A stretch of DNA of 64,000 bases. Source: an uncultured Thermoplasmata archaeon. Lineage in GTDB: Archaea > Thermoplasmatota > Thermoplasmata > RBG-16-68-12. The DNA lies in the NCBI GenBank assembly GCA_963768855.1, contig CAVYJM010000006.1, positions 1,024,001 through 1,088,000 of the forward strand, in the 5' to 3' direction. Below the pieces are notes generated by a model. It ran no database searches. It was not told the origin of the DNA and saw only the letters and a list, made by a program, of their open reading frames with translations. The position numbers and the translations under genes are program-made. Of this stretch, positions 17,397-45,533 are shown piece after piece; position 1 is the stretch's first letter; every line of letters starts with the position of its first letter.

Positions 17397-17470
17397 GCCG
17401 TCGTAGCTCAGTCTGGTAGAGCCCCCGACTGTTAATCGGGTGGTCTGCGGTTCGAATCCGCACGACGGCG
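17397..17470 (+). tRNA. tRNA-Asn (GTT)
   Basis: Cloverleaf by hand: GCCGTCG/CGACGGC acceptor, CCCGA-CT-GTT-AA-TCGGG anticodon arm, TTCGAAT T-loop; CCA not encoded. Confidence 0.96.
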
Positions 17471-17473
17471 CTC
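17452..17473 (+). repeat. attL core, 22 bp TCGAATCCGCACGACGGCGCTC
   Basis: Exact copy at 45477..45498; covers the tRNA-Asn 3' end. Confidence 0.92.
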
Positions 17474-17476
17474 CCT

Positions 17477-17500
17477 CTAGGAGTGGGAGGATTCCAATTG
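17477..17500. repeat. left arm inverted repeat CTAGGAGTGGGAGGATTCCAATTG
   Basis: Reverse complement matches 45448..45471 at 21/24 positions. Confidence 0.8.
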
Positions 17501-17516
17501 AGGCCATCGGGCGATC

Positions 17517-18500
17517 TCAGGCTCGGCCGAGGGCTTCGCGGACCTCAGCGTGCGCCTGCTTGACCTGCTTCCTAGCGTAGTAGCGCTCGGTCGTGGCAGT
17601 CGTCCTGTGCCTCATTGAGACGCTGACAGCGTCCAGCGGGGCCTGTTGGTCGATAGCCACCTGCCCGAATGTCGCCCTGAAGGTCTTGAGGTGGAACTTG
17701 AGGCGCGCGCGCCTTTCAATCTGGGCCTTCAACTTGCGCATCATCGCCTCCGACCAATAGCCAAGGCCGCCATCGGCGTGACGGAACGGGATGAGTGCCT
17801 CGTGGTAGTCACCTTTCAGGAACCGCTCCCTCGCGTCCAGGAAGTCCCGCAGGGCCAGCATCCCGTCGTCGGAGATGGGCGCGGTCTCGGAGTGTCCTTC
17901 GTTCCACGCGCCTTCTCCCTTAGGATGGCACACGAGGACCTCCTTGTTCTCGAAGTCGACACAGGTGAGGTCCTGTAGCGTTAGTTCCTTCGGCCTCAGG
18001 CCCGTCGCGGGCGCGAAGCGGACGATGAAGCGCGCAACATCTCCCCACCAGCCCTCGTAGCCCTCCACCGCGAGGCGGAGCGCTTTGAGTTGCTCAGGTG
18101 TCAGCGCTTCTGGCGGCTTCTGTGAAGGCCTCGGGAGCCTGTATTGCGGTTTGGTCTTCAGTTGGCCCACGGCGCCGTTGCCACAGAAGGCGAGGAAGCC
18201 CTTGAGCGCACGGAACAGGTGGACTTGGCTCGTCCCGCTTAGGGTGCCGTCCTTGTTCTTGCCCCGCTTCCTTCGGGTGCGCCAGTAGCCGAGCAGGTTT
18301 CCGATGTCGTCCACGGTCATCGCCCTCGGGTTCGTCGTGGATAGCCTGCCACGCTCGCGGAGGAACTTCGCGTCCTCGTTGATGGTGTTGAGGTCCCTGC
18401 GGAGTTGCTCCAGCGTGACGGACGCTCGGTGGTCACGCAACGCGTCCAAGTAGTCGTCGCTCAGCGCAGAGAACGGGTATCGCCCGTGTGGGTTAGGCAC
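17517..18500 (-). CDS. tyrosine recombinase/integrase
   Basis: TGLRPKEL (R), HPKG (K), KTFRATFG (KxxR in place of HxxR), MRHRT (H), TERYY (Y); start uncertain (GTG 18500 chosen, ORF open to 18767). Confidence 0.92.
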   Translation of the reverse strand: MPNPHGRYPFSALSDDYLDALRDHRASVTLEQLRRDLNTINEDAKFLRERGRLSTTNPRAMTVDDIGNLLGYWRTRRKRGKNKDGTLSGTSQVHLFRALKGFLAFCGNGAVGQLKTKPQYRLPRPSQKPPEALTPEQLKALRLAVEGYEGWWGDVARFIVRFAPATGLRPKELTLQDLTCVDFENKEVLVCHPKGEGAWNEGHSETAPISDDGMLALRDFLDARERFLKGDYHEALIPFRHADGGLGYWSEAMMRKLKAQIERRARLKFHLKTFRATFGQVAIDQQAPLDAVSVSMRHRTTATTERYYARKQVKQAHAEVREALGRA

Positions 18501-19388
18501 GCGGACGAACTTCCCTCTGCCATTCCTGTGCTGTCGACAGCGTCTCCCGGTTGTCCCGTGGGTGTTTCCTTCGGCTTCCAAAGTCGAAGCACGGGTTCTT
18601 TCTCCTAGAGACAAGCGAAGTGTCCCGTCTTCGCTCGCCTTCGGAGAACCCATTGACCTGTGGGAGGTTAATGGCTTCGGCCCCGTTCGTCGAGTTGAAC
18701 GCCCCCGCGCCTTCTCGGGTTTGGGTTCGGCGTCTGGCGTCTGGTGACGGCGGGCTAGCGAGAACAAGGGCGTGGCGGTACGGCTCCCGTGGCCGCCCGC
18801 CTCGCGTCATACAGACCCCTGCCTTCGTCGCGGCCGTGGACCAGCCGTGACCCGCCGAGTACTGCCATCAATCTTACTAGGCGAAGATCCCCTATAAACA
18901 ATCGGGTCATGGCGGTCCGCAATCGGTGCGCCCTGCCTGGGCTTCCCGTCATGACCGCAGATCCTAGAGAGGCTGGGCGGGTATCCCAACCGTGGCTTGG
19001 CCGAGCATGGCAGCCCCGGGAATCTTTTTTATGCGGCTCCACGATAAATGTGCTCTCCTGAGGAAACGATTAGGACGGCTCTCCGGGCCTCTGCGCGTGA
19101 GGAATGGCTGTAATGCGTCCTAATGCGTTGCTAGGGGCCTTCGCGGGGCGCTTGCGGGAGTTCGCCCCATCTGAGGACGCTTGATCGCAAGCCCCCCCAT
19201 CTGGCGGGCCTCGGTGATGGTCTGGGCAAGGATCGGCCTTCGGTGGGTCGGGTGCTATCAGTGTCAGTGATGAAAGTGCCAGCGACGCGTTTATGCCCTC
19301 TGCAACCAATGGAATTGCAGAAGCGCTCCGGAAGCTTTCTTCGTCCTTGCGTGGCCCGGGGCGTTCCATGTTAAGGGAGGACTTGCCC

Positions 19389-19667
19389 ATGAGACGACCC
19401 ACCCCTGCCCAATGGGAACGTTGGGAGCGAATCCGGCGCGAGAACGATGAGCGTGAGCGGCGCGAAGGGACGTATTGCCGCATCACGGAAGGTCCGGCTA
19501 CGGACTATGAGGAACGCAAGGAGAGCCAGCAGGAAGCAGACCAGTTCGAGCGGGCGATCCCCATCCTGGTCGTGGACGATGAGTTCGTGCTCCTGGAGAG
19601 GCCCGACGGGGGAGTCGTCCAGGCCCGAATCCTCGGGCGGAGGCGGCGGTCCCCGCCGAAGGGGTGA
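19389..19667 (+). CDS. hypothetical protein, highly charged, mobile-element type
   Basis: AGGGAGG SD before ATG 19389; 92 aa. Confidence 0.6.
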   Translation: MRRPTPAQWERWERIRRENDERERREGTYCRITEGPATDYEERKESQQEADQFERAIPILVVDDEFVLLERPDGGVVQARILGRRRRSPPKG

Positions 19668-19674
19668 ATCGTCG

Positions 19675-19794
19675 ATGAAATGGACCGTCCCCGGTGCGAT
19701 CGTCGATGAGGCGCTTGCCCCCTGGGTCGAGTTCGCCCTGGTCGATCCCCGTACAGGCCGAGTGGTGCTCCGAGTGACCGACGCCGAGGTGTGA
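19675..19794 (+). CDS. 39-aa hypothetical protein
   Basis: GGGGTGA SD before ATG; MKWTVPGAIVDEALAPWVEFALVDPRTGRVVLRVTDAEV; directly follows the previous gene. Confidence 0.45.
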   Translation: MKWTVPGAIVDEALAPWVEFALVDPRTGRVVLRVTDAEV

Positions 19795-20079
19795 GCCTAT
19801 GCGCTGTCGAGTCGGCTGGTGATCGAGCTCTGGTCCACCTAGCACACGGCAACCCTTCCGCCCGTCCGGTGCAAGCCTATTCAGCTCCGCGTCTGGGAAG
19901 TTGCGAGCAGCCGTTCACGGAATCGTGCCGAGGGCTCCGCCCCCATTCGTTGAGCCCGCAATGGAGCCATCGCCGACAAGGGGTGTTTCCTCGGCAGTCG
20001 AAACTCGACTGACAGCATCCGTGTCGGCGCGCCAGGGAAAGGTTTATAGGAACGCGATTCTACCTTGTCTTGGAGAGAT

Positions 20080-20295
20080 ATGAGGATAGTTGCCTGCGAT
20101 GTCTGCGGCAGGACGGACGGTGTCCACGCATACCACATCACCGTCTTTAACGGAAGTGTGCGTGTGAGGGGCAAGCCTCTGGGCGACCTCTGCGACACGG
20201 ACCTGAGGCGGCGCCTGAATCTCCTCGACCTGCCTCTCCCCAAGCTCGGACGTCCCCCGAAGAACCAGACGAAGAAGACGAGCAACCCGCGGTAG
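20080..20295 (+). CDS. small Zn-finger-like protein with AT-hook-like tail
   Basis: CDVCG..H..DLCD, KLGRPPK; GGAG SD and TTTATA box at 20043. Confidence 0.65.
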   Translation: MRIVACDVCGRTDGVHAYHITVFNGSVRVRGKPLGDLCDTDLRRRLNLLDLPLPKLGRPPKNQTKKTSNPR

Positions 20296-20426: not shown

Positions 20427-20843
20427 TCAAATCTGCTCTCGGCCGTAGCGCATCCGAGGATCAAGGCGACCGCACAGAATGTCGGTCTTCAAGGCAACAA
20501 CGCCCATGATCGAGGCGACTAGAAAGACCCCTAAGAGGACCGGGTAGTCGCGAGTCGTCGCAGAGTCGAACAGTAGCCTTCCCAACCCCGGCCAGGCGAA
20601 GATGACTTCGATAAGTACCGCGCCAATCAGAGAGTATCCCAACCAGAGCCCCGCGAGGGTGACGGTCGGCAGGGATGCGTTCTTCAACAAGTAGCGCGGG
20701 AATACAGACGTCTTCCTAAGTCCTGTCGCCCGGAGGGTGGTCACGAAGTCCTCGTCCAGGGTTTCGATGACGCTTGAGCGAGTCAACTGGTAGAACTGCG
20801 GCACGTAGAACGTCACCATGGAGGCGATTGGCATTACCATCTG
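20427..20843 (-). pseudogene. 3' remnant of a DppB/OppB-like permease
   Basis: QFYQLTRSSVIETLDEDFVTTLRATGL..NASLPTVTL..DPRMRYGREQI, closely parallel to the C-terminal part of 41486..42463; 5' two-thirds missing. Confidence 0.9.
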
Positions 20844-21543
20844 GCCTGTCAATGCACGTATCATGCGTGCGAGCGTGCTCTCCTTGAAGGAGCGGCAGTT
20901 CGTTCGGGTGTCCTCCCGCGTCGTGAGCATCCTGGAGCAAGTGGGACTGAGTCCCGTGGACGCGTTCATGCACAAGTACCCGACAGAGCTCAGCGGAGGC
21001 CAGCGCCAGCGGATGGCAATCGCGAGGGCCCTCGTTGTCAAACCGGACTTCGTCCTCGCGGATGAGCCCGTTTCGATGTTGGATGTCTCGGTCGCGTCCG
21101 GCATCCTCAATCTGATGCCTGATCTACGTCAGCAGTACAAGACTGCCTTCCTGTTCATCGTGCACGACCTGGCCGTCGCACGGTACATAGGCGATCGAAT
21201 CGCTATCATGCATCGTGGCAAGATCGTCGAGCTCGGATATGCAACCGACGTTGTCGGGAATCCATTTCATCCATATACCCCGCTGCTGCTCTCAGCCGTA
21301 CCTGTCACTGACGTCTTGGAGGGACGCGGGCGCGTCGAGACTTGCTCCGATGTTGTCGTCAGGGAGTATGCGGCAATTGGATGCAGATTCTAGTACCAGT
21401 GCCAATGGGTGATGGACATCTGCCGAGACGCGGTTCCGGAGTTGATGCAGCCCGAGAACGGACACACCGTAGCTTGCTACAAGTGCCCGTCCGGAGGCGT
21501 AACCGGTGACGCGGCCTCGGTCGCATCCACTCAGTCGCAGTAG
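20828..21543 (+). pseudogene. in-frame fusion remnant of DppC-like and DppF-like genes with internal TAG
   Basis: GITIWPVNARIMRASVLSLKERQFVR (DppC-like) joined to ILEQVGL..LSGGQRQR..ADEP (DppF-like, no Walker A); TAG at 21391 where the intact paralogue has Gln; homology continues to 21480. Confidence 0.9.
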
Positions 21544-21642: not shown

Positions 21643-22737
21643 TCAGCCTGCCGATTGTGCCATCCGAAGCAGCTTCCGTGCAGGCACGTACCGGCCCGGG
21701 TAGCCCATTGCACGGAGGGCGTCAGAAAACAGCACTGATGCTGCCTTCGATCTCCACTCCTTCTGTGCCTCGACCACGAGAACGACCACTTCATCGTTCG
21801 GCCTCAGGTCCGCGTTAGTGGTTGCTGAGCCGTCCGGCGTCATATAGCAGATGCGATCGGGAGCGAGTGCAGCGGGGCGTTGGTTCCGCAATGCAATCAT
21901 ATTCTCGTTCATCGACTTCACCCTGACATGGCATCCACGATATTCGCCTGTGCCTCGAACGTCGAGTAGTCCAAACGTGTAGCTTCCCTTGCTCTCAGTC
22001 TTGACGCGCTCCACACGTCCGCGCACAAGGATTGCCCCGCCCATTTTGCCCAGCACGGCAGGGACCGGATCCTGTTCCGACGCGACTGCTTCGCGTATGG
22101 CCCTGCCGACTTCTTGTGCTAGGGAGATGGTGCCGGAGATGCACACGCGCTTGGCAATACGGCCGCTCACTCGGTAGCAGGCAAGCCCGGCGAGCCATCC
22201 AAAATCCTCCAGCGCCGAAAGCGCGAGCCTCTCAGCCAGTGCATAACTGTCGGTTCTGATCACCACAGTCTCTCCTGGCGCGTTTCCAAGTGCCATTGGA
22301 GTAAGATGGATGCCCTCGGCAAAGAGAAGCGACTGATTGAGGTGGGGAATAGCCCGTCCCGCACCATCGGCGTCGACGAGGGTGACTGGAGCGTGGGCTG
22401 CGACGGTCATCGGAGTAAGAAAGTTGAATCCACTTGCCTCAACCGGGAGCACGTACTGAATCCGTTCTCCGATCGACTCTTCAAGGGAGGCGAAGGCGCT
22501 CTGCGCCTGCGTCGTGAACGGGATACGTAGCATGGCTTCAGGTGACCCCATGCCCGCAACAGTCACCACTGACGCCTGGTCCTGGACTCCGGAGAGTGGA
22601 GTCATCTGAATAGACTTCCTCCGGAGCCAGCCATCGGCAAGTGCTTTGGCAGCTCGGAAGGATCCACCGCCTCCAGTGCCGAGAATCGTCCCACCCAAAG
22701 CAATATCGAGGAACTCTTTGTACCCGAGCGATCTCAT
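21643..22737 (-). CDS. DUF917 family protein
   Basis: GGTILGTGGGG, AGMGSP, PVEASGFN, VDADGAGRAIP, MNENM..APDRIC. Confidence 0.85.
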   Translation of the reverse strand: MRSLGYKEFLDIALGGTILGTGGGGSFRAAKALADGWLRRKSIQMTPLSGVQDQASVVTVAGMGSPEAMLRIPFTTQAQSAFASLEESIGERIQYVLPVEASGFNFLTPMTVAAHAPVTLVDADGAGRAIPHLNQSLLFAEGIHLTPMALGNAPGETVVIRTDSYALAERLALSALEDFGWLAGLACYRVSGRIAKRVCISGTISLAQEVGRAIREAVASEQDPVPAVLGKMGGAILVRGRVERVKTESKGSYTFGLLDVRGTGEYRGCHVRVKSMNENMIALRNQRPAALAPDRICYMTPDGSATTNADLRPNDEVVVLVVEAQKEWRSKAASVLFSDALRAMGYPGRYVPARKLLRMAQSAG

Positions 22738-23029
22738 CGCGACACCTCAAGCGACTGACTCTATTTATGCCTAGGCATCCCCGTTCGCGGGCATGGGACG
22801 CCGTGGAATACATGGACGGAGCCTGACAACAGGGGGACTAGGCGGACCCTTACAGCGGAGTCTAGTCAACTCTGCCAGCACCTTATGTTGGCCACAGCTT
22901 GGCTGGACGTCGCGCTGCGCGAGCTGGTCCGCTCCCTGGGTCCGAGCCCGATGCATCAGATCTGTCATCTGAGCTTCTCCTCACCATAGCAGTTGCTTAC
23001 GGCCGAGGCCCCCGCATGAGACTCGCCGT

Positions 23030-23818
23030 CTAGAAAGACGCGACCGGGCATGCTGCCGTGATCCCCCCGTCAATCGAGAAGACTGCACCGGTGACATACG
23101 CCGACCGATCGCTTGCCAAAAACAACATCAGCTCTGCAATCTCCTCAGCCGTCCCGAGACGTTTCAGAGGATGGGAGTCTGCGAGCGCCTTTTGCAGCTT
23201 GTCTCGATCGGGAGCAGCGTCGAGCACTTGATCAAGCATCCGTGTATGCAGAGTTGAGGTTGGGGCAACTGCATTGACCCGAATGTTACGATCCCCATAT
23301 TCAATTGCGAGTGCCCTCGTCAGTTGTATGACACCACCCTTCGAGGCACAATATGCGCCGAGATTTGCAAAGCCAACGATTCCTGCATCCGAAGCTGTGT
23401 TGATGATCACCCCCCCGTTCGCACTCAGAAAGTGAGGTATCACATGCTTCGACATCAGGAAAGCTCCCTTGAGATTCGTGTCAATGATGTCGTCCCAAAG
23501 AGCCTCGGATGTCTCGATGATCTTTGCGACCCTCGCGATGCCGGCGTTGTTCACGAGAATGTCTATCCCCTTGAAGGCCTTCAGAGTCTCATCGACGGCG
23601 TGCTTCACTTGGGCCTCATTCCTGACATCTGTCTCAATAAAGAGCGCCTTGCCCCCCGTCCGTTCAACCATGTCTACCGTCTCTCGGCTCCAAGCAGGAT
23701 CCAAGTCGATTACCGCAATCGATGCTCCCTCCTTCGCGAAGCGAAGTGCCGTCGCACGTCCGATGCCTGATGCCGCCCCCGTGATTGCCGCGGTCCGGCC
23801 TGAGAGCTCCATGAACAC
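23030..23818 (-). CDS. short-chain dehydrogenase/reductase
   Basis: TGAASGIG, NNAG, YCASK, NAVAP; Asp after beta2 suggests NAD preference. Confidence 0.93.
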   Translation of the reverse strand: MFMELSGRTAAITGAASGIGRATALRFAKEGASIAVIDLDPAWSRETVDMVERTGGKALFIETDVRNEAQVKHAVDETLKAFKGIDILVNNAGIARVAKIIETSEALWDDIIDTNLKGAFLMSKHVIPHFLSANGGVIINTASDAGIVGFANLGAYCASKGGVIQLTRALAIEYGDRNIRVNAVAPTSTLHTRMLDQVLDAAPDRDKLQKALADSHPLKRLGTAEEIAELMLFLASDRSAYVTGAVFSIDGGITAACPVASF

Positions 23819-23946
23819 CGATCAGGCATCGTCGGCTGAGTACAAAACTGTTTTCAGAAAGTCCTTGTTCCGAGAGCTGGAGCCGCGACAGGACTCGCCT
23901 CGAGCCACACGGATTCGTTAAATATGTTCATTCTGATTACTTCTCC

Positions 23947-24972
23947 ATGTCACGTAGGCGCTTGAAACTCTCGTCCCTTGGTGGAGTGCCGATGAGACCC
24001 GCATGGCGAACAACTGGGGTCATCAAGGTCGCGGAGCACCCGGACGGCTCCGCGGAGACCATTCCTTTCGTAGTTGTCACAGGAGCCGCGGAAGGTCCGT
24101 CTCTCTGGATAACGGCGTGTGAACACGGCGACGAGGTACTTAGCGCGAGTGCTGTCGTAGAGTTCATGAGCCGGCTCGATCCCAACGAGGTCAAGGGTCA
24201 GGTTGTCGCCTTGCCCGTCCTTGACAGCACGGCATTCAACATCAAGCGGCGGTTCAGTCCTATCGACAGCTATGACTTCAGTAGGGCGTGGCCAGGCTTC
24301 AAAAACGGTTGGTTGGCGCAGCAGGTTGCCGTTAGGATGTTCGAGCTTCTGAAGGCTCATGCTGACTTCGTGATCGATGTTCACAACGGAATGCCTGGAA
24401 TCTCTGAAGTGGCTCCGTACATGATTGCAGGCTACGAGAGGAGGGAGCAGTGGGAATCTACGATCAAAGGTTTTGCCGAATCCTTTCTCTTCGAGAAGAT
24501 TATCCACTGGGTCGGAACGTCCACTGAACGAGGAGCGCGGACATCAACGATGATGGCGGCGCTCGTCAAAGAGGGGATTCCATCGTTCGTGCCTGAAATC
24601 GGACCCGATACCAACACGGGCACCAAGGTCGCACTTCGAGGCTTCGAGAACTCAATGAAGTACCTCGGAATGCTTGAGGGCGAGCCCAAGAGGTTGCCCA
24701 ATTACATGGCCTTCCCTGATGTGATTCACGTCTTCTCGACGAGGGGCGGTCTATTCAAATCGCACGTGAGCCTTGAGGACGAAGTCAAGGAAGGGCAAAA
24801 GCTAGCTTCAATCCGTAACTTCACTGGCGAGATCACTGAAGAGCTGGTGAGCCCAGCGGCAGGTATTGTCATCGCTATCTGGGTACTCCCGATGATAGGA
24901 TCAGGTGATTTCTCCGCGTACGAGATTGCGACATTCGACGAATTCAGGAAGCCTTGGCCTGGCGAACGATAG
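23947..24972 (+). CDS. AstE/AspA family (M14) deacylase, paralogue 1
   Basis: CEHGDE zinc motif, DFSRAWPG, DVHNG, VPEIG, C-terminal biotinyl-like domain. Confidence 0.9.
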   Translation: MSRRRLKLSSLGGVPMRPAWRTTGVIKVAEHPDGSAETIPFVVVTGAAEGPSLWITACEHGDEVLSASAVVEFMSRLDPNEVKGQVVALPVLDSTAFNIKRRFSPIDSYDFSRAWPGFKNGWLAQQVAVRMFELLKAHADFVIDVHNGMPGISEVAPYMIAGYERREQWESTIKGFAESFLFEKIIHWVGTSTERGARTSTMMAALVKEGIPSFVPEIGPDTNTGTKVALRGFENSMKYLGMLEGEPKRLPNYMAFPDVIHVFSTRGGLFKSHVSLEDEVKEGQKLASIRNFTGEITEELVSPAAGIVIAIWVLPMIGSGDFSAYEIATFDEFRKPWPGER

Positions 24973-25127
24973 CGATGTCGGCTATCCTACGTTGACAACC
25001 CTCTCCGAAATATCCGTAAGCGTGGTGCGTGAGGTCCAGCGGGTCGCATGACGTCGTTCGATTGGCATGCGCCCGCTCCGAGGTATTATCCCTGACAAGC
25101 CGCTACTCCCACCGAGGTGGTGTATTC

Positions 25128-26375
25128 ATGGAACGGATCGATGCGGATGTACTCATCCCGGGACGTGGGGATGTGGTGAAGAACGGTTGCGTGGTTTTGG
25201 ATGGGAAAGCAATTGCCTACTCAGGTCCCATCGAAAGCGCTCCCAACACCCCCGCCGACACCATAGTCCACAACGTGCCCGTCATCATGCCGGGGATGTG
25301 GGATTGCCATGCGCATTTCATGGGGCTGAAAACCGCGGATCTCAGCGAAGCCGCCAGGAGCTCGCCGCAGGTGACGGTTGTGCGAGCTGCCAAAGACGCA
25401 GAGCTCGCGCTACGGGCGGGCTTTACGAGTGTTCGCGAGGCTGGCGGGTATGGAGTCTTCCTTGCCCGCTCCGTGGAAGAGGGGACGCTGAAAGGGCCCC
25501 ACATTTATGGATCTGGGGCTATCCTCAGCGCCACCGGCGGTCACGGGGATCTCCACTCATATCCACTGGATTGGGTGCTCTCCATGGCCTCTTCGGTGGG
25601 CTTCCTCGGCCTCTGCGATGGAGTCGATCAATGCTTCAAGGCCACCCGAAGCCAGCTTCGGCTAGGCGCGCGAGTAATCAAAGTCTGTGCCTCTGGAGGC
25701 GTTCTCAGCACCTTTGACAGCCCCGTTCATCAGCAGTTCACGGACGCCGAACTGAGGGCAATCGTAGAAGCTGCGGGCATGGCGGACCGCATCGTCATGG
25801 CTCATTGCCATGGAAAGGCTGGCATTATGGCCGCTTTGAACGCAGGATGCCATTCCATTGAGCACGGCTCTTACCTCGATGACGAAGCAGCGGAGTTGAT
25901 GGTCCTCAGGAAGGCGATACTGGTTCCTACGCGGTTCATTATCAATCGCCTCCGCGACTTCGCTGAGGTGGCTAAGTTGTCAGACGTATCCTGTCGCAAG
26001 CTCGATCTCCTCGCGGATCATCACAAGGAGGCAATGCGGCTTGCCGTAAGGAAGGGGGTGCGAATCGCCCTGGGGACGGACATCCAGACCTCCGGCATGG
26101 ATACGGCAGTTCCCTGGGGTATGAACGCCTCGGAACTCCGATGCCTCGCCGAGGCGGGCATGACCTCCCTCCAGGCGCTCGAGGCTGCAACGGCCACGGG
26201 GCCGCTCACCTTGGGGCCACAGGCCCCGAAGTCGGGCCAGCTCAAGGAAGGCTACGACGCGGACATACTCGCAGTCGTGAAGAACCCTCTCCAAGACCTC
26301 TCCGTGCTGACGAACCCGGCTAACATTACGGAGATTTGGAAGTCCGGGGCCCTCGTAAAGGATCTGTCCGGGTGA
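25128..26375 (+). CDS. metal-dependent amidohydrolase, prolidase/ochratoxinase-like subgroup
   Basis: PGMWDCHAH, IKVCASGG, AHCHG, IEHG, ALGTD; GAGGTG SD before ATG 25128. Confidence 0.9.
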   Translation: MERIDADVLIPGRGDVVKNGCVVLDGKAIAYSGPIESAPNTPADTIVHNVPVIMPGMWDCHAHFMGLKTADLSEAARSSPQVTVVRAAKDAELALRAGFTSVREAGGYGVFLARSVEEGTLKGPHIYGSGAILSATGGHGDLHSYPLDWVLSMASSVGFLGLCDGVDQCFKATRSQLRLGARVIKVCASGGVLSTFDSPVHQQFTDAELRAIVEAAGMADRIVMAHCHGKAGIMAALNAGCHSIEHGSYLDDEAAELMVLRKAILVPTRFIINRLRDFAEVAKLSDVSCRKLDLLADHHKEAMRLAVRKGVRIALGTDIQTSGMDTAVPWGMNASELRCLAEAGMTSLQALEAATATGPLTLGPQAPKSGQLKEGYDADILAVVKNPLQDLSVLTNPANITEIWKSGALVKDLSG

Positions 26376-27785: not shown

Positions 27786-27819
27786 GCTGTCTCACCTTTC
27801 CCGAAAGCGAGCTCCCGGC

Positions 27820-28734: not shown

Positions 28735-28737
28735 ACT

Positions 28738-30896: not shown

Positions 30897-30911
30897 GGGA
30901 ACGTTCAAATA
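30897..30911 (+). promoter_or_regulatory. promoter-like motif GGGAACGTTCAAATA shared by deacylase paralogues 2 and 3
   Basis: 14/15 match to the reverse complement of 33189..33203, each about 36 nt before its start codon. Confidence 0.5.
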
Positions 30912-30947
30912 ATAGGATCCAAATACACGCAGTCGGGGGTCAATTCC

Positions 30948-34837: not shown

Positions 34838-35492
34838 GACGCTCACTTCCGCAAGGCGAGAAAGGTCTACCGGCCTATTGTAAATTTCGGTCGAGAGGGG
34901 AGGGCATTGGTCACGTCTCATATCACCGACGACCCGGTCCTTGTCATTCACACGCTGGCGGCCGTCGGCGCCGGCTGGAATCCGTCGCGGCGGCTGAAAC
35001 TTCGACGCCCCGTGTGCACCTCGGGGCTCTCTGCGCACATGCCCGACTCATTCGACTCGGGACTAGACGAGGTCGTCCGCGAATGCAGTCCGTGCATCGG
35101 TCGTCGTGGTGTCGTCCCCTGTGCTAGGGAGGATAAGAGCAACTCTGGCGGCAGCGCCAACTGACCAAACAGACCGTGCAGAGGTTATGCGTCAGGACCA
35201 TGCGAGTGGCCACGTTGCGGCAATCGGGTCTTCTCCTTTCCGCTCCCGATTCCTTAGACTGAATCCAGCGGAGCTGTGTATGCATGGAACCGTATTAGCA
35301 GTTGCGGCGACTGGCAGCGAGATTCACACAGCCCCGGGGGCTTGTCCTCTCTACAACACTTCGCGTCGAATGGACCACCGCTTCCTACGATGACTGTCGG
35401 CACGCCCAAGCCAAATACGGCCGCTTCGTCGCTCGCACTGGACGGAGTGGTCTTGCGGCAAGCTTTTGCCCGTCTCCTCCTCTCACGTCTCC

Positions 35493-37622: not shown

Positions 37623-38557
37623 CTGGTTGGATGGCGGAGCTCGGGCATATACAGGGCAATGGAGTCACGCTCGCACTCGGGGAACGCCTTCGGGCAGCGT
37701 GGGCGGAACAAACACCCCTCGTGCCGCATGCTCAGATCGGGGGGGATCCCCGGCAGGGTTGCCAGCCGCGACCTGACTCCTCGAACGGTCGGGACACAGT
37801 GAAGCAGCGCCTCGGTGTAGGGATGAAGCGGCCTACTCAGTATCTCATCCTTGTCAGCGAGTTCCACCACCTGACCAGCGTACATGACTGCGACACGGTC
37901 ACAGACCTCGGAGACAACCGCGATATCGTGAGAAATGAAAACCACCGTCCGCCCTCCTTCTTCCTGCCAGTCTTCGACATTCTTGAGGATTCGGTCTTGA
38001 ACGACCACGTCCAGTGCTGTAGTCGGCTCATCTGCGATTAGCACTTCTGGGTCAAGCAGCAAGGCAAGAGCGATGGCGGCGCGCTGACGCATTCCTCCCG
38101 AGAACTCATGCGGATAACTCCGAACGCGAGACTCAGGGATTCCCATCGAGACCAGTGCTTTCTCAGCGGCACGAGTCGCCTCGCTCTTGGAGGATCCGAG
38201 GTGGGACATATGAACGGCGGCAAGTTGCTCAACAATCCGGTGAACGGGAGAAAAAGCGTTCATCGAACTCTGGAAAACCATTGCGACTCTCGTCCAGCGA
38301 ACTTCCCGCAACTGCGACTCGTCCATTCTGACAAGGTCTGTGCCATTGAGCAAAACCCGACCCGAGGCGATGATTGCGTTCATCGGCAAGACCCTAATAA
38401 TCGAATAGGCCAGGCTCGACTTACCACAACCCGATTCACCAACAATGCCAACGATTTCGTCGTTGTCAACTCTTAGAGACGTGTTGGTCACTGCGTTGAC
38501 CCTCTTTCCCGCGGGCAACTTATACTGAAGCGTCAAGTCTTGGATGTCAACAGTCAT
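37592..38557 (-). CDS. oligopeptide ABC ATPase (DppD/OppD-like)
   Basis: GESGCGKSS, FSGGMRQR, ADEPTT, HPYT. Confidence 0.94.
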   Translation of the reverse strand: MTVDIQDLTLQYKLPAGKRVNAVTNTSLRVDNDEIVGIVGESGCGKSSLAYSIIRVLPMNAIIASGRVLLNGTDLVRMDESQLREVRWTRVAMVFQSSMNAFSPVHRIVEQLAAVHMSHLGSSKSEATRAAEKALVSMGIPESRVRSYPHEFSGGMRQRAAIALALLLDPEVLIADEPTTALDVVVQDRILKNVEDWQEEGGRTVVFISHDIAVVSEVCDRVAVMYAGQVVELADKDEILSRPLHPYTEALLHCVPTVRGVRSRLATLPGIPPDLSMRHEGCLFRPRCPKAFPECERDSIALYMPELRHPTRCLLYATGSK

Positions 38558-39486
38558 GGGGACACTTCACCCAGATCCTCTCGCGCCACACTCACGCGGG
38601 CAGCGCCTTGGGTCGCGGCCAGCCCATCCCCTATGAGGTTGAAACTAAGGATCAGCAGGGCTATCGCGATTCCCGGAAAAAACGCCAGCCACCAAGCATC
38701 AACAAGGTGAAACGCTCCCACATTGACTATTTGACCCCAGCTGATGACGTTCGGGTCGCTGAGTCCTAGAAAACTCATTCCCGCTTCGAACAGAATCGCC
38801 TGTCCGATTTGGAGGTTGGAGTTCACAATAACCGGCTGAATCGCATTCGGCAGAATGTGTCTCACGATTACGGATGGGCCGGAAGCACCAGTTGCTACTG
38901 CGGCCCGTACAAACTGCCTCTCTTTTAGTGACAGCACGCTCGCCCGCATAATGCGAGCATTGGCCGGCCAGATTGTGATGCCAACCACTAGGATTTCGAA
39001 ACCGATGTTATTGCCGAAAATGGCGACTACCATCACCAATAGGAAGAAGGGAGGGATCATGAGGACGATTTCGAAGGAGCGGGAGAGCAGCTGGTCAAGC
39101 CACCCACCGAAGTATCCTGAGACAAGCCCCAATGGAATTCCGAAAACCATCGATAACCCTGCAGCCAGTACACCAAACAGTATCGAAACGCGTGCACCCC
39201 AAATCACTCGGCTAAACACATCGCGTCCTATGTCATCCGTTCCGAAGAGGTGAGCGGAAGAGGGTGGTTGGAGTTGCCCGAAGGCTATAGATGAGGGGGA
39301 ATAGGGCGCCAGCAACCATGGAACAAGAGCGAGGATTATGAAGAACAGCAAGACCGCGAGACCGAGAACAGCGGGCTTGTCTGCTCGAAAGCGTCGCCAA
39401 AAGGCTCTAACCCGTTTGGCCGACTCAAGCAACCCAGGATGGCCCCTAAGCGCTTCCAAAGCTCGTCGCAAGTGATATCGTTTCAT
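38554..39486 (-). CDS. oligopeptide ABC permease (DppC/OppC-like)
   Basis: HLFGTDDIGRDVFSR, RHILPN, EAGMSFLG, FNLIGDGL. Confidence 0.94.
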   Translation of the reverse strand: MKRYHLRRALEALRGHPGLLESAKRVRAFWRRFRADKPAVLGLAVLLFFIILALVPWLLAPYSPSSIAFGQLQPPSSAHLFGTDDIGRDVFSRVIWGARVSILFGVLAAGLSMVFGIPLGLVSGYFGGWLDQLLSRSFEIVLMIPPFFLLVMVVAIFGNNIGFEILVVGITIWPANARIMRASVLSLKERQFVRAAVATGASGPSVIVRHILPNAIQPVIVNSNLQIGQAILFEAGMSFLGLSDPNVISWGQIVNVGAFHLVDAWWLAFFPGIAIALLILSFNLIGDGLAATQGAARVSVAREDLGEVSP

Positions 39487-39699
39487 CGGATAAATCGTTT
39501 TCCAGGCTCAATGTCATGGAATCACGCTTTCGCCGACAGAGAGTTTTGTGCTCACTCGACGGAGATGTTCGGAATGGTGCCGTGCAACTGGCTCTTTATG
39601 GAATTTCACCGAATCGCAATACAATCTATTCCGAGGTTTGGGGATGCCAAGTATTATCTAGCATTCAACCCTTTACCGAATAGGTTCGGAGGACGAAGG

Positions 39700-41439
39700 A
39701 TGCGGCTCTTGGTGATCGCTTTTGTCTTGGCAACCATTGTGGCGGGGTCGTTTGCTGGGGTTGTGTCCACGGGCGCGGTCAGAGCCCAGGGCGAAAAAGT
39801 GCTCGTGATCGTGCAGCAGAACGACCCTGGGATATTCAACAACATCCTGGCGAACACGATTGGAGCACGATACGTGCACTACAATGTATGGCAGGAGTTA
39901 GTGCACCTCAGCTATGACAGCCAGAACATAACGTACCAGCTCGCCAACAGTGTGAGCATATCTTCGGATGGGTTGAATTACACCTTCCATCTTCGTCCGG
40001 GACTGAAATGGAGCGATGGCGTTGCGTTCACTGCGGACGATGTCAAGTACACGTTTGACGAGGCCTTCGCACTACCGACATGGGGTCTCGACTATCTCTT
40101 GGACGTCAACTCCACCCACGTGGATGACCCCTACAACATCAGTTTTGTTTTGAAGGGGGCTAATGCAGCATGGCTCCCGTATTTTGCCTTCGGATCTGAC
40201 CATGGTCTCAACATTCTCCCGAAGCACTTGTATGAGGGCACCAACATTTCGACGAACCCAAACAACTTCCATCCAATCTCGCTCGGCCCGTTCCTATTCG
40301 ACTCGTACACCCCAGGTCAATCGATTACCCTCGCAGCAAACCCCAACTATTGGGGCGGCAAGCCTACTGTTGACAAGGTTCTCATCAAGATTCTGCCGTC
40401 CTCGGCTACCGCCCTGCAGGAGCTGCAGTCAGGCGACTTGATGTACGTCGGTTCATATGACAACTCTATCGCGTACTCACAAATCCCGCCGGTCGCTGCG
40501 ACACCCAACATACGCGTCGATGGGGCGGAATGGCCTGTCGTCACCTTGATGCTCATGAACACCAAAGACGCAGCGGTTGGGAATGTAACACTGCGCCAAG
40601 CGATCGGATATGCCATTAATCGTACCGAACTCGCTACCAAGGCGTTCTACGACTATGCCTTCGCCATGAACGGGTTCTACCTCAACACCAAGTGGTATAA
40701 CCCCGCGGCAGAGCTAGCCTACAACCCGACGAAGGCGACTCAGCTGCTAGACCAGCTCGGGTACCCACAGGGAACTTGTCGCGTCAACATTGAACTCTCA
40801 TACCACACCCTGTTTGGCATGGATGTTGAGGCTCAGGTGATAAAATCGCAGCTGGCCGAGGTGGGCATCTGCGCGACACTCTGGTCGGGAGACTACGCAA
40901 CTTGGTTCCAGAGAGTCCAGGTGGACGGCAATTACCAGATTGCACTACGCGCGTGCATGATCGGACCAGACCCTGACCTCTTCTGGCCATGGCTCAACCC
41001 GCTTCACCAGGGCGAGAGCGGCTCAACCTTCTTCAACAACACTGCAATGAACAACTTGTTCAGTCAGGCAAGACAAATCAACGACTTCGCCCAGCGGAAG
41101 TCGATGTACGACCAGGTCCAGCAGATTCTACATGACAATGTGCCGCTCCTCCTGCTCACGAACCTGCAGGACGTTAACCTGTGGCGGACCGACTTGGTGC
41201 GCAACATGGGGGCCGAAACGGGGACAAACAGATGGGATCTGGCCACGGCGGAATTGGTTACTACCGCAGCACCGAGCACTCTGGACCCATTCATCGTCAC
41301 CGGTGTCGTGATTGTTGTGATCGCCGCCGTGGGCGGAATTGTGTGGTGGCGAGTGAGCAAGGGCCGAGCCAGCAAAGCAAAGCTGAGAGAACCACCCCGC
41401 GAACAGCAACCACCCCAAGGAGGGCCACCGGGAGGCTAG
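39700..41439 (+). CDS. ABC substrate-binding protein family 5 (DppA/OppA-like) with C-terminal TM anchor
   Basis: Signal peptide, YTFHLRPGLKWSDG..FTADDVKYT, LGPF, C-terminal hydrophobic helix; GGAGG SD before ATG 39700. Confidence 0.93.
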   Translation: MRLLVIAFVLATIVAGSFAGVVSTGAVRAQGEKVLVIVQQNDPGIFNNILANTIGARYVHYNVWQELVHLSYDSQNITYQLANSVSISSDGLNYTFHLRPGLKWSDGVAFTADDVKYTFDEAFALPTWGLDYLLDVNSTHVDDPYNISFVLKGANAAWLPYFAFGSDHGLNILPKHLYEGTNISTNPNNFHPISLGPFLFDSYTPGQSITLAANPNYWGGKPTVDKVLIKILPSSATALQELQSGDLMYVGSYDNSIAYSQIPPVAATPNIRVDGAEWPVVTLMLMNTKDAAVGNVTLRQAIGYAINRTELATKAFYDYAFAMNGFYLNTKWYNPAAELAYNPTKATQLLDQLGYPQGTCRVNIELSYHTLFGMDVEAQVIKSQLAEVGICATLWSGDYATWFQRVQVDGNYQIALRACMIGPDPDLFWPWLNPLHQGESGSTFFNNTAMNNLFSQARQINDFAQRKSMYDQVQQILHDNVPLLLLTNLQDVNLWRTDLVRNMGAETGTNRWDLATAELVTTAAPSTLDPFIVTGVVIVVIAAVGGIVWWRVSKGRASKAKLREPPREQQPPQGGPPGG

Positions 41440-41485
41440 TCCGAGTCACCGCTTCCCTAGAGTACTTCCTGGAGCGCAGGCGGAT

Positions 41486-42463
41486 ATGCTACGCAGGTAC
41501 CTAGTGACCCGGCTTTTGCAGATAGTACCCGTACTGTTCGCGATTGTCACTATCGACTTTCTCATTATACATCTGGTTCCAGGAGACCCGGCAATCGCAC
41601 TCGCTGGGCCCAACGCCAACCCTGACTTCATAGCAGCAATCCACCGGGAATTCGGTTTCGACAAACCGCTCTACGAACAGTACTTCATCTATATTCTCAA
41701 CCTCATGCAAGGCAACCTCGGTATCTCCGTTGCGCAGCACCGCCCAGTTCTCGACACGATCTTGGAGCGGCTTGGACCCACCCTGCTCCTCATGCTAACA
41801 GCCTGGTTCGTGTCGCTTGGCCTTGGAATCTACCTTGGGACGAAGTCTGGAATGAGACAAGGTTCTCTTTGGGACCGCTCAATGTCTCTTTTTGCGCTAA
41901 CAATCTACTCAATCCCTGTCTTCTGGCTCTCCCTCATGACAGTGACGCTGCTCGCGCTTCGGTTTCCCGTCTTTCCAGTATCGGGAATGGTGGACCTAAG
42001 ATACCCTAGCCAAGGGATAGGTCTCGTTATTGACCTAGGTCGACACATGGTTCTTCCACTGATCAGCATGGTTGCATTCTACATGCCACAATTCTATCAG
42101 CTGACTCGTTCCGGCGTCGTCGAGACGCTCAATGAAGACTTCGTGACCACCCTTCGCGCGACAGGACTGAGGCAAACCCCCGTGTTCTCGCGCTATGTCC
42201 TGAAGAACGCCTCTTTGCCAACGGTGACCCTGGCGGGGCTATGGTTGGGCTACGCCCTGACTGGCGCGGTACTTATCGAAGTGATTTTCGCCTGGCCTGG
42301 GCTCGGACGACTGCTGTTTGACTCGGCGCTGGCACGCGACTACCCAGTGCTCCTGGGTGTATTCATATTCGCCTCGGTCATGGTCGTTTTCGTGGCTTTG
42401 ATTACAGACCTGCTGTATGTGTACCTGGATCCCCGGATGCGCTACGGCAAGGAGCAAGTTTGA
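41486..42463 (+). CDS. oligopeptide ABC permease (DppB/OppB-like)
   Basis: RRYLVTRL, PGDPA, GFDKPLYEQY, LIEVIFAWPGLG, DYPV, LDPRMR. Confidence 0.94.
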   Translation: MLRRYLVTRLLQIVPVLFAIVTIDFLIIHLVPGDPAIALAGPNANPDFIAAIHREFGFDKPLYEQYFIYILNLMQGNLGISVAQHRPVLDTILERLGPTLLLMLTAWFVSLGLGIYLGTKSGMRQGSLWDRSMSLFALTIYSIPVFWLSLMTVTLLALRFPVFPVSGMVDLRYPSQGIGLVIDLGRHMVLPLISMVAFYMPQFYQLTRSGVVETLNEDFVTTLRATGLRQTPVFSRYVLKNASLPTVTLAGLWLGYALTGAVLIEVIFAWPGLGRLLFDSALARDYPVLLGVFIFASVMVVFVALITDLLYVYLDPRMRYGKEQV

Positions 42464-42615: not shown

Positions 42616-43653
42616 CTACCCTGCAATCGGCCCTATGGCAAGGTCCGGATGGACTATCTTCCCGTCCTTGACGACGCACTCATCGTCCAAGAACATGCTC
42701 TGCTTCATGAGCATGGTGTCCAGGTGCGACCTCGCCTTGTTCTTGCCTCCCAGACCGCGGAAGATGTTGGCACCGAGCGCGAAATTGATGCATCCCTCGA
42801 TGCTCTCGACCTCCTGAGCCTGGTCGATACTCGCCCGCGGATCCCCCCCGAATCCTATGTGCGAAACAATGTAGCTATTGGGGTCTCCGAACGAGGCCAG
42901 CCAGTTCTCCATGCGTCTCGCGTCGGCACGTCCTTGGATTTCCATCGCTCGCCCCTTCTTGAGTTTGATGGCAAACTGGTCAGAAACGAGTATCTCCTGA
43001 GGCGTGGTCCACACAAAGTCGCCGGGTTCTACAACGAGCGTGCCTTCCACGGACCCTTCAATCGGTGCGCATGCGAATATAGAGGAGGGTGTGCTGTCCC
43101 ACTCACCGGGTTTCCGGGCAATTCCATCCTGCCCCCAGCCATTTCGACCCTCGACGTTCGCAACCACGTTGGTGCCGTTGTCCGAAGTGATTCGAATCTG
43201 CTTCGCCTTCGTGAGCATTTTGGCCACACGCTGTGCCCGCTGGACCAGTGCCTCCGTGGGCGGCATCTTCACGAGGGTATGCTCAGTGGAAAGGACCTGA
43301 AGGACTCTCCCCCCCGAGTCGAGGATCTCGTTGAGTCCATTGGTGTACAACCACTGCTCAGACGAGAGATCTGCAACCATCTTCGCACCTTTCATCGCGA
43401 GCAGGGCGGGAGGACTCGGTTCCTGAAGCATCTTGTGCGGCGCAGGAATGGTCAGCATGAGCGGCTCCAAGTCCAGCGCCAGCGCCGCGCCAAAGAAACC
43501 CTCCACCAGAGCCGGGGACTTGCCTGTGTCGGTATATATCGCAAGCAGGTCACCCGGTCGCAGTTCACACAGACTTAGTATCTTCCGTATGCTTCGCAGT
43601 GCCTCCAATCTGTACAAACTCAAATCCTCACCCCGCGTCCAGACGTGGTCCAT
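42616..43653 (-). CDS. NicX-like / M29-fold metalloenzyme
   Basis: GIARKPGEWD..PS, SHIGFGGDPRA, SHLD, LDDECVVKDG parallel the recalled NicX motifs. Confidence 0.7.
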   Translation of the reverse strand: MDHVWTRGEDLSLYRLEALRSIRKILSLCELRPGDLLAIYTDTGKSPALVEGFFGAALALDLEPLMLTIPAPHKMLQEPSPPALLAMKGAKMVADLSSEQWLYTNGLNEILDSGGRVLQVLSTEHTLVKMPPTEALVQRAQRVAKMLTKAKQIRITSDNGTNVVANVEGRNGWGQDGIARKPGEWDSTPSSIFACAPIEGSVEGTLVVEPGDFVWTTPQEILVSDQFAIKLKKGRAMEIQGRADARRMENWLASFGDPNSYIVSHIGFGGDPRASIDQAQEVESIEGCINFALGANIFRGLGGKNKARSHLDTMLMKQSMFLDDECVVKDGKIVHPDLAIGPIAG

Positions 43654-44051
43654 TCAATGGCCGGTCTGTAGTCAGCGGGATGGGCAATCTGAGTCATAAG
43701 CCTTTCCAGAGGGGACCTTACCCCTGGGACTCCGCATCGGCCTCAGTGGCCGTTGAACCCGCATTACGGAAATGTGACTCGGCCGGGTCTGGCAGAAGTT
43801 ACCCAGGTTTGGATACGCCTTTGCCTGCCGCTTCCCAGGTTTCACTAATGTTCGATCCGTTTCGACCTTGTGTTAAGTCCGAGTGTCGGTGCGGCAGTTT
43901 TATGTCGGTGCATAACCATATCGTATCGGAGGTCTGTGGGGTCCGGCACCTCCTCCAGGTTGTCCCTAACTCGTTAACCCACGCGGACTCCCGGCCTCCC
44001 TTCGCATGCCTGACCAGTACTGTTCTAGAGGAAGTCTGTGGAGTTGTCGAG

Positions 44052-44697
44052 GCGAAGAAGCTCAGCATCCTTGGAAGCGGGGACGTGGCACAGGCGCTTG
44101 GTCGCGTTTCGCTCGACATGGGCGGGAGGTGATGCTGGGCTCACGGACGCCGAACAGCAAGAGGCTGACGAGATGGGCTAGGACCTCTGGATGCAGAGCC
44201 CACACCGGCACACTAGACGAAGCCGTTGCATTCGGAGACGTCGTGCTTCTGGCGCTGCGTGGCACAGCTACGGTGGAAGTCGTCGGACGTCTCGTTCCTT
44301 CAGACCTCGTAGCAAGCTTGTGCTCGATGTGACGGACCCAATCGACTATTCGGCAGATCGCCCCTACGGTCTGTTTATTGGAAACACAGATTCCCCCGGC
44401 GAACGGGTGCAGCGCGCGCTCTCAAGCTCGTTCGTGGTGAAGTGCTTTAATGCGGTTAACAACAGCCAGATGATAGACCCTGAGTTTTCGGAGACAACGC
44501 CTCCTATGTTTATCCGTGGCGACAGTGCTGGGGCGAAGAAGCGCACGGCGCCTATTCTGCGTGAGCTTGGTTCGCCGGCGGCGATCGACGTTGGCCATAT
44601 CGAAGCGGCGCGGTGGCTTGAGACGCTCGTGCCTCTGTTCATTCGTGTCGGAACTCGGCTGCGAACCGTGCGCCAAGCATTCAAGGTCGTGACCTGA
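44052..44697 (+). pseudogene. frameshifted NADP oxidoreductase (F420-dependent NADP reductase-like)
   Basis: KLSILGSGDVAQALG (frame A), ARHG.EVMLGSR (frame B), KLVLDVTDP..VVKCFN..DVG.IEAARWLE (frame C): two 1-nt deletions near 44106 and 44311; no clear start codon. Confidence 0.85.
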
Positions 44698-45447
44698 GAC
44701 TGCGTCGGCGAACTTCCGACCGAATAGCCCCCACTTCAATGCACATGCGGGGGTTTCATCCGAGCTGGAAAGTCACAAACACCGGGGACACGTACACGAT
44801 GAAGAACGGCCAGGTGAGACGCAGGAGCACATCTGGCGCCTGCCCCGTCCTATTCCACCGAGATTCGACAGGGGCTGGTTCGCAATAGCAGCCGGAGCCG
44901 TTGTAGACTGTGAGTAGCATCCTAGCCCTAGCGTCACGTGGGCAGGCCACGACAATCGGATGCATATTTCAGGTCCCTGTGCACCGAGCAGGTTGCGTTC
45001 GTACGATGGTGTGCCGGATGGGCAGAGCGTGAGAGTTAACGGGCGAAGGCCTTTCGGCTCCGGTTCAGGGACGCATGATGGAGCCCCATCTGGGCATCCG
45101 CCTCGGATGAGCCCTAAGGGGCAGGCTGACGCCAGAGCACCCGAAAGATGGACGGGGCGGGGTCCTTGCAGAGCCTAGGGTACAGGGACAGGAGCCGATA
45201 GTCGAGCGCGGTTGCGGTCTCTAGATTCGCCGGAGATGCGCACCTACCCCTCCCTAAGAACGAATCCTGCCCCGGACGCTCTCAGAAAAGGCCGAGTGCC
45301 GATTCTGGAGTCAACGCTGTGAGTGGACCCTGACGGATCGGAACTGCCTTTCGATGGCAGATCGGGGTCGAAAAAGGGGAAGGGGGAGGCGATTGCCCGC
45401 CTCCATGATGGGACATACCGGGAGACGGACTCTTGGGCCGTTGCCTC

Positions 45448-45471
45448 CAATTGGACTCCGTCCACTCCTAG
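45448..45471. repeat. right arm inverted repeat CAATTGGACTCCGTCCACTCCTAG
   Basis: 21/24 match to the reverse complement of 17477..17500; ends 5 nt before attR. Confidence 0.8.
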
Positions 45472-45476
45472 TGTGG

Positions 45477-45498
45477 TCGAATCCGCACGACGGCGCTC
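45477..45498 (+). repeat. attR core, 22 bp
   Basis: Exact copy of 17452..17473. Confidence 0.92.
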
Positions 45499-45533
45499 TT
45501 CTCGGTGTCAGCGCTCCGCTCTCGTCGCCCCGA

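Follow-up and report, generated by a model that had tools for sequence, protein, structure and literature searches.

A tRNA-Asn-linked genomic island with metabolic cargo, probably non-autonomous, in an uncultured Thermoplasmata archaeon

How did a 28-kb block of mostly metabolic genes come to lie between two copies of a tRNA gene end in an archaeal chromosome, and can it still move? The block occupies positions 17452-45498 of a 64,000-nt stretch of DNA (the window) from an uncultured Thermoplasmata archaeon. An earlier note on this DNA had described it as an integrase-only cargo island in tRNA-Asn that may still excise. We think it highly probable that the block is a non-autonomous integrative genomic island, that is, a cryptic integrated element with metabolic cargo. 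The host assembly (G000) is a metagenome-assembled genome (MAG) of 2.87 Mb in 24 contigs with 40 tRNAs; it was compared with G003, G009, G013, G014, G017 and G020. Coordinates are positions in the window unless a contig is named. tRNAs were called with ARAGORN and Rfam, and all sizeable open reading frames (ORFs) of the island were scanned against the Pfam, NCBIfam and PHROGs families.

We found that the island is bounded by exact repeats of the end of its target gene. The target, tRNA-Asn(GTT) (17397-17471, + strand), is intact and is called by both ARAGORN and Rfam; the 40 tRNAs of the assembly include no other tRNA-Asn. The attL core (17452-17473, +) consists of the final 20 nt of the tRNA plus 2 nt, and the attR core (45477-45498, +) is an exact copy of it. 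An identical 22-mer at both ends had been reported before, and we can confirm it: TCGAATCCGCACGACGGCGCTC occurs as two exact copies in the window with a start-to-start spacing of 28,025 bp, and shuffled sequences give a chance expectation of 0.01 matches with up to 3 mismatches allowed. No further copy of the core was found in the window, even at ≤3 mismatches, and so none lies within the 28 kb.

The element-side sequences next to the two cores are also related to each other. The arm beside attL (17477-17504), which contains GGATTCCAATTG, is an inverted repeat of the arm beside attR (45443-45471). The arms pair at 25 of 29 positions, with an alignment score of 36 compared to 11.5 ± 2.4 (maximum 25) for 2000 random pairs. 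Because the element-side sequences at both full cores are mutually inverted, we predict that the reconstructed attP is the 22-bp core between two inverted arms with GGA(T/G)TCCAATTG. The arm at 17477-17504 is a candidate binding site for the integrase. GATTC...TCAAT-like motifs come after the core in G009, G014, G020 and G017.

The composition of the island is foreign to its host. Its guanine-plus-cytosine (GC) content is 0.578, compared to 0.660 ± 0.018 for the genome, and is the lowest of 174 genome windows of 28 kb each. The tetranucleotide distance (0.361; mean, 0.103) is the second highest among these windows. The composition check proposed with the earlier note has thus found a shift on both measures. 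The island is also a mosaic, with a GC content of 0.63 in the integrase module and 0.55-0.61 in the cargo modules. At third codon positions (GC3), the integrase gene (0.82) is close to the flanking host genes (0.83-0.88), in contrast to the cargo genes (0.62-0.70).

The block is absent from the same locus in relatives. In G013, whose flanks are ~80% identical, tRNA-Asn is followed by ~215 nt, a homologue of 47169-47516, an unrelated 2-kb insert, and synteny with 49242-59967. (The 215-nt spacer resembles the island arm weakly, and we do not claim it as a scar.) In G003, tRNA-Asn is within ~1 kb of the homologue of ~50378. In G014, Thermoplasmata archaeon UBA8695, the tRNA is followed by the last ~75 codons of an integrase of the same family, with KTFR, H and Y kept, and then by the homologue of 49693-50986. 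G009 has a different element at its tRNA-Asn, with a full integrase of this family (48% identical), and G017 contains two att copies 767 nt apart. Because the site is in such different states in G013, G003, G014, G009 and G017, we regard it as a hot spot, filled and eroded again and again in the genus.

Comparison with sister genomes, which had been suggested as a check, therefore speaks for insertion. The finding that would have spoken against an island, a syntenic and vertically inherited region with no compositional shift, is contradicted by the absence of the block in relatives and by its GC content, the lowest in the genome. Some observations do weigh against our reading, and they are given here and, where they concern decay and excision, further below. 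Several cargo genes have homologues in G014 that are 78-84% identical, and this divergence is about that of core genes (80-83%). Because the two divergences are equal, part of the cargo has probably circulated in the clade for a long time, either via an ancestral island or by transfer from congener to congener. We nevertheless find it barely credible that the region is a vertical inheritance with a fortuitous repeat. Chance would yield 0.01 such repeats, no 28-kb window of the genome is lower in GC than the block, and G013, G003 and G014 do not have it at this locus. The G014 copies are themselves low in GC and lie on separate small contigs (0.60-0.63, compared to 0.68-0.71 for the G014 core contigs). 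They are in another order, and the ligase/CitE and main Opp modules (below) are not interposed. In DNA-level searches, G009 and G013 were without the cargo genes that are shared with G014.

The estimated contamination of the MAG, 7.7%, also counts against the island. Together with the foreign composition of the block, it might indicate a chimera of assembly or binning, in which foreign low-GC DNA was joined at the tRNA-derived 22-mer. We consider this very improbable. The block is inside a 1.13-Mb contig, and the k-mers usually used in assembly are longer than 22 bp. In addition, the tRNA-integrase junction is seen again in G009 and G014, the arms at attL and attR are inverted partners, and the GC3 of the integrase gene is host-like.

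The island encodes an apparently intact tyrosine integrase that reads toward the tRNA, as had been noted. The gene (17517-18767, - strand; the longest ORF encodes 416 amino acids [aa], annotated as 327 aa in the source assembly) ends with a stop codon 43 nt from the att core. The product matches PF00589 (50.2 bits; cutoff, 27.1) and the phrog_1 integrase family (6.2e-18), and all the catalytic residues are present: R258, K283, K361-x-x-R364, H387 and Y397, with LKTFR at the position of the HxxR motif. In an alignment of 17 family members, R258, K283, R364, H387 and Y397 are invariant and the first HxxR position (K361) varies among K, R and Q. The protein is far below the equivalog cutoffs for XerA, XerC and XerD (XerA model NF040815, 37.6 bits; cutoff, 220).

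Relatives of the integrase are few. We found 61 among 5.8 billion proteins, mostly from soil metagenomes, with one labelled Thermoplasmata. GTDB MAGs with the family are labelled Thermoplasmata, Thermoplasmatota, Methanomassiliicoccaceae, Methanobacteriota and euryarchaeote, and by this sequence sampling the family appears to be restricted to Thermoplasmata and related MAGs. With tblastn, neither the 50,697 phage and virus records searched nor the 72,556 plasmid records yielded a match to the integrase. A single-sequence (pairwise) search of PDB chains also gave no match; a family profile was needed. At E ≤ 0.1 the profile matched XerA, XerD and a Tn1549-type Int, with XerA of P. abyssi (4A8E, E = 5.5e-6) as the best match and XerA of T. 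acidophilum (5HXY) at 3.1e-3. The chain of the SSV1 integrase was not among these matches.

The lysine at K361 aligns with the His of HxxR in P. abyssi XerA. The earlier note had likened this lysine to that of SSV1-type integrases. KxxR is indeed the SSV1-type consensus, and YxxR is that of the pNOB8 type (PMC8371274); replacement of the first His is a known variation that these enzymes tolerate. The likeness ends there, as the position is K, R or Q within the family and the protein is closest to XerA.

Other integrases of the family are also found at tRNA genes. The directly adjoining genes are tRNA-Asn (G009), tRNA-Leu(CAG) (six loci), tRNA-Phe and tRNA-Ser (in the host genome); at one further locus a tRNA-Gln is ~1.5 kb away. 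The closest relatives examined, with 74% and 59% identity, and one with 50% identity are in elements dense with small ORFs, and one with 55% identity adjoins UvrD and PD-(D/E)XK genes. None of these four elements contains metabolic cargo.

Two small genes accompany the integrase. Small gene B (19293-19667, +; 124 aa) and small gene A (19675-19794, +; 39 aa) have homologues in L026 (at 8192-8536, beside the integrase, and at 8028-8156, respectively), a metagenomic element rich in small ORFs that has a Prim-Pol/PriCT/AAA_25 replication protein and an integrase of this family. Gene A also has a homologue in a second island of the host, on contig C12 (below). Gene B has no family in Pfam, PHROGs, NCBIfam or the ESM Atlas. 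Between the integrase gene and gene B are ~0.5 kb of non-coding DNA (18768-19292), within a segment (18552-19296) that is 80% identical to the C12 island; this stretch probably holds a divergent promoter and regulatory region. The three tiny ORFs noted earlier were therefore real in part. Small genes do exist beside the integrase, but they are these two, on the plus strand. We rejected the minus-strand small ORFs in 18755-20285 as genes; they have flat codon-position GC and Arg/Ser/Pro-rich translations, with no family or homologue. Likewise, the description "integrase-only" holds for the lack of replication, conjugation and virion genes. It is not strictly correct, because two small conserved mobile-element genes adjoin the integrase. 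In SNJ2, an archaeal integrase that targets a tRNA gene is helped by small accessory proteins (Wang et al. 2018, PMC5861418), and by analogy genes A and B might assist this integrase, which we offer as a lead.

The rest of the island is mostly cargo. As described earlier, about 24 of the 28 kb are transport and metabolic genes, and the families are confirmed by Pfam, NCBIfam and PHROGs; all sizeable ORFs from 20.4 to 44.7 kb, those of ≥150 aa, are assigned to transport or metabolism, apart from one. From the integrase side, the cargo begins with a decayed second Opp-type transporter (20427-21431) of which a C-terminal piece of permease B (-), 81 nt of permease C and half of an ATPase, the C-terminal one (+), are left. 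In G014 (C271) the ATPase genes of this transporter run full-length, up to the contig end. The block 21643-26375, with homologues of 78-81% nucleotide identity in G014, contains genes for an S-Me-THD-like protein (21643-22737, -), an SDR (23030-23818, -), a DoeB-like deacylase of the AstE/AspA family (deacylase 1; 23947-24972, +) and an amidohydrolase resembling Xaa-Pro dipeptidase (25029-26375, +). A four-gene operon (26871-30290, -) encodes a CoA-ligase beta subunit with a Citrate_bind domain, a 97-aa protein, a CoA-ligase alpha subunit and a CitE/HpcH-type lyase. It is followed by two more AstE/AspA-family deacylases (deacylase 2, 30762-31958, +; deacylase 3, 32143-33153, -), a pyridoxal-phosphate (PLP) aminotransferase (33740-35038, -; NF004870, 375.7 bits, cutoff 351) and an SBF-family (bile acid:Na+ symporter-like) transporter (35466-36398, +). 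The intact Opp/Dpp-type ABC transporter (36582-42463) has ATPases F and D and permease C on the minus strand and binding protein A and permease B on the plus strand. The exception among the assigned ORFs is a 345-aa protein with no Pfam family (42616-43653, -), with an 84% nucleotide-identical homologue in G014 (C222) and distant paralogues elsewhere in the genome. The last cargo gene, for an npdG-like F420-dependent NADP reductase (44006-44697, +), is split over two frames, by a frameshift or an assembly error.

The cargo would support a catabolic pathway. Peptides or acylated amino-acid derivatives would be imported via Opp and SBF, then deacylated or hydrolysed by the three AstE/AspA enzymes, the amidohydrolase and the S-Me-THD protein, and then transaminated. 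An organic acid could be processed through a CoA ester by the ligase and lyase.

The cargo appears to have come from more than one source. At the DNA level, none of 37 congeneric genomes has a homologue of the ligase/CitE operon. The four genes recur as an operon on JGI contigs of 52-53% GC, with 77-78% nucleotide identity over 3.4 kb; these contigs also bear archaeal housekeeping genes, and the closest named homologues of the CoA-ligase beta subunit are from Bathyarchaeia. The aminotransferase gene is 77% identical at the nucleotide level to a core paralogue (C11:234934-236005) that is present in nearly all congeners. Because of this identity to a near-universal congener gene, its origin is placed in the genus or close to it, in contrast to that of the ligase/CitE operon. 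We propose that the cargo is a lower-GC mosaic, with several genes common to G014 and with the ligase/CitE operon acquired from a lineage of ~52% GC. The integrase gene, the ~0.5-kb control region and genes B and A would make up the integration module, which resembles the host in codon usage and is shared with Prim-Pol elements of Thermoplasmata that replicate themselves.

The Pfam, NCBIfam and PHROGs scans of the sizeable island ORFs turned up no family for replication, conjugation or virions, in agreement with the earlier note; its term "non-autonomous" fits this gene content. There is no room for a replication, transfer or virion module, because the DNA without assignment is only in pieces of <800 nt. 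In particular, the island ORFs include no conjugation ATPase or mating-pore module, and the ATPases present are Opp-type ABC subunits. No capsid, terminase or portal gene was seen among the ten ORFs scanned with PHROGs (the integrase and the small and otherwise unassigned ORFs), in which the integrase was the sole match of the island. Because replication and transfer genes are lacking, the element would depend on a helper to move between cells, or on some other means (vesicles or natural uptake, for instance).

These results are most consistent with site-specific integration. A circular form with attP would recombine at the 3' end of the sole tRNA-Asn gene, in a lambda-like attP x attB reaction within the 22-bp identity, catalysed by the element's own integrase with Y397 as the nucleophile. 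Since a copy of the tRNA 3' end comes with the element, the tRNA would stay intact at attL and the displaced copy would become attR. We infer that this integrase made the present junctions.

Excision may still be possible. An intact enzyme, preserved arms and an attR that is still exact, though free of selection as a tRNA, make it plausible. There are, however, signs of a resident that no longer moves. A long residence is suggested by the remains of a second Opp transporter and by the split npdG-like gene, and no recombination directionality factor was recognised in scans with Pfam, NCBIfam, PHROGs and the ESM Atlas. Neither the attP junction nor the empty attB was found in public metagenome contigs. 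These scans are weak and uninformative evidence, because they needed exact matches and the source sample is possibly outside the collection. G014 shows an end state at the same site, with its 75-aa integrase stump. It is quite possible, though somewhat less likely than not, that the island is real but has become a fixed and decaying resident, that its integrase and att sites are relics, and that excision has ceased. Against this, the integrase ORF is not truncated and lacks none of the catalytic residues, the inverted arms still match at 25 of 29 positions, and attR has 0 mismatches in 22 bp without selection as a tRNA. By our estimate, ~10% of such sites would stay exact at 10% neutral divergence.

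The site has been used more than once. A third, partial att copy (46685-46699, +; 15 exact bases), missing from the first reading, shows a tandem array or re-use of the site. The 1.2 kb between copies 2 and 3 (45499-46684) contain a small membrane-protein ORF and a methyltransferase-like gene (46022-46690, -). This stretch is either a remnant of an older, decayed insertion or a local duplication of tRNA tail, motif (below) and gene. Conserved host synteny restarts at ~47169, not at 45499. Whatever its origin, the stretch leaves the borders of the 28-kb element unchanged.

Could the island then be a composite, in which a small integrase element entered at the tRNA and the cargo was added later, by insertions, rearrangements or tandem elements that lost their inner att sites? 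Site re-use at the third copy and the two att copies of G017 fit such a history, as do the GC mosaic of the modules and the reordered G014 genes without the CitE/ligase and Opp modules between them. But no att copy lies inside the 28 kb even at 3 mismatches, the outer arms pair as those of a single attP, and the mosaic could equally have formed before the last integration. We consider a composite unlikely, and favour a single island that entered with its cargo.

Several other sequences near the att sites or related to them were noted. A 20-mer, AGCGGCCGGAACGGCTATGC, is 35 nt downstream of the attR core and likewise of the third att copy, and these two local copies are each other's closest relatives. 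We rejected it as part of att; it is not itself an integrase site, because it belongs to a dispersed motif of ~45 nt with 9 copies in the genome. The motif, around CGGCCGGAA[CG]GGCTATGC, is in the window at 45534-45553, 46735-46754 and ~47170 and has G000 sites at C4:1709, C6:325866, C6:886140, C6:744482, C6:374222, C7:128986 and C11:212989. It is present in G013 too, downstream of tRNA-Asn. The motif often terminates in GTCGATG immediately ahead of a small ORF, and it may be the promoter or leader of a gene family for small membrane proteins, or a miniature mobile sequence. A copy of the tRNA-Asn att core with 21 of 22 matches is at C11:212210-212231 (L011), with no tRNA. It is followed by CCACCCAT..., similar to the element arm at the second att copy of G017, and is probably a displaced or orphan att site.

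The host genome contains a second island of the same design, that is, an integration module plus cargo. It is at tRNA-Ser(CGA) (C12:105703-122960; L071), with an integrase 44% identical to that of the tRNA-Asn island and a homologue of gene A, and its GC content is 0.54-0.60 from ~110 kb to the contig end. The cargo encodes a TGT-like protein, an Ogg-HhH glycosylase, QueC, ThsB-TIR and 8xMP, a set that looks like a 7-deazaguanine/Thoeris-type defence cluster. It further includes EamA and MFS transporters, an amidohydrolase and an S-Me-THD protein. No replication gene was found among the ten largest ORFs scanned. No repeat of ≥12 nt of the tRNA-Ser 3' end, as expected of an attR, was found on the contig, and the low-GC DNA runs off the contig end.

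Integrase, A and B might together form a portable integration cassette, common to self-replicating Prim-Pol plasmids or viruses of Thermoplasmata and to replication-less islands. The latter, among them this island and that at tRNA-Ser, would be satellites, excised and moved by a helper with a compatible integrase family, and tRNA-Asn would be a multi-entry accretion site for such units. We think this broader scheme unlikely.

Three further observations concern the surrounding genome. Rfam gives a weak tRNA match at 50410-50467 (31.3 bits), where ARAGORN makes no call. A 2-kb segment of G013 (C158, L019; 10857-12874), placed in the variable zone downstream of tRNA-Asn, is 92% identical to C6:880014-882035 of G000, compared to ~80% for core genes, and is probably a recently exchanged mobile gene or insertion sequence. 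The first ~140 kb of contig C6 (C6:1-140000) are as deviant as the island (GC 0.61-0.62; tetranucleotide distance 0.33-0.38) and may represent an island of very large size or, given the contamination of the MAG, a chimeric join.

The tRNA-Asn island is a clean, well-bounded case of catabolic gain in uncultured soil or sediment Thermoplasmata, with ~20 transport and catabolic genes acquired by one site-specific event. In interpreting the genome, its genes for catabolism of peptides and acyl-amino acids should be read as accessory traits of strains and not as traits of the genus. It also brings out a small family of tRNA-targeting integrases (~60 of 5.8 billion sequences) with K, R or Q at the first HxxR position. 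The predicted attP, a 22-bp core with inverted arms, is a possible genetic tool for a lineage without any. Overall we regard the island as of modest interest, for its restricted integrase family, its very high share of metabolic cargo and the mosaic origin of that cargo.

Among known systems, the island is much like the cryptic integrated elements (CIEs) of Thaumarchaeota. These have an integrase and att sites, often in tRNA genes, without hallmarks of viruses, conjugative elements or casposons; auxiliary metabolic and transport genes are frequent, and repeated use of one site gives rise to tandem arrays (Krupovic et al. 2019, PMC6563490). The island likewise has an integrase and att sites, no hallmark genes in the Pfam, NCBIfam and PHROGs scans, and tandem site re-use. 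It differs in its host, a Thermoplasmata MAG, in its integrase family, in the unusually large share of metabolic and transport genes (~24 of 28 kb), and in having no candidate replication protein.

Bacterial tRNA-linked islands target the 3' ends of tRNA genes, carry a repeat that regenerates the tRNA and an integrase gene by attL, deviate in GC content, and are patchy among relatives. The island shares all these anatomical features with them and with integrative mobilizable elements. It differs in that its host is archaeal and no oriT or relaxase-type mobilisation function is recognisable.

The resemblance to systems of archaeal viruses and plasmids is partial. In common with SNJ2-type haloarchaeal pleolipoviruses (PMC5861418), the island has a tRNA target, short direct repeats, an intact integrase gene and small proteins encoded beside it. 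However, genes A and B are divergent from the integrase gene and not co-transcribed with it, the cargo is metabolic and not viral, and in a pairwise search of phage and virus records the integrase has no match. As in the SSV1 type, there is a Lys at the first HxxR position and the R...KxxR...Y consensus is present (PMC8371274). In SSV1-type systems, though, attP is inside the int ORF and the gene is split, whereas here the ORF (17517-18767) is intact and the core ends at 17473. We rejected membership in the SSV1 type: despite KxxR, the island does not belong there because the integrase gene is not split by integration, and in addition, among solved structures, the profile finds XerA and not the SSV1 integrase, and tblastn gives no match in the virus records. 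The integrase gene also stays intact after integration in pNOB8-type (type II) systems. The island differs from these by K instead of Y in R...YxxR...Y, and by the lack of a tblastn match in the 72,556 plasmid records.

XerA proteins are the closest solved relatives of the integrase and have the catalytic fold and residues in common with it. In contrast to the island integrase, XerA resolves chromosome dimers at dif and has HxxR; the island integrase has an extra conserved N-terminal region and is at a tRNA att site. Taken together, the element is not an integrative and conjugative element, a provirus, or an SSV1-type or pNOB8-type system, and it has every tested feature of a tRNA-linked genomic island and of a CIE.

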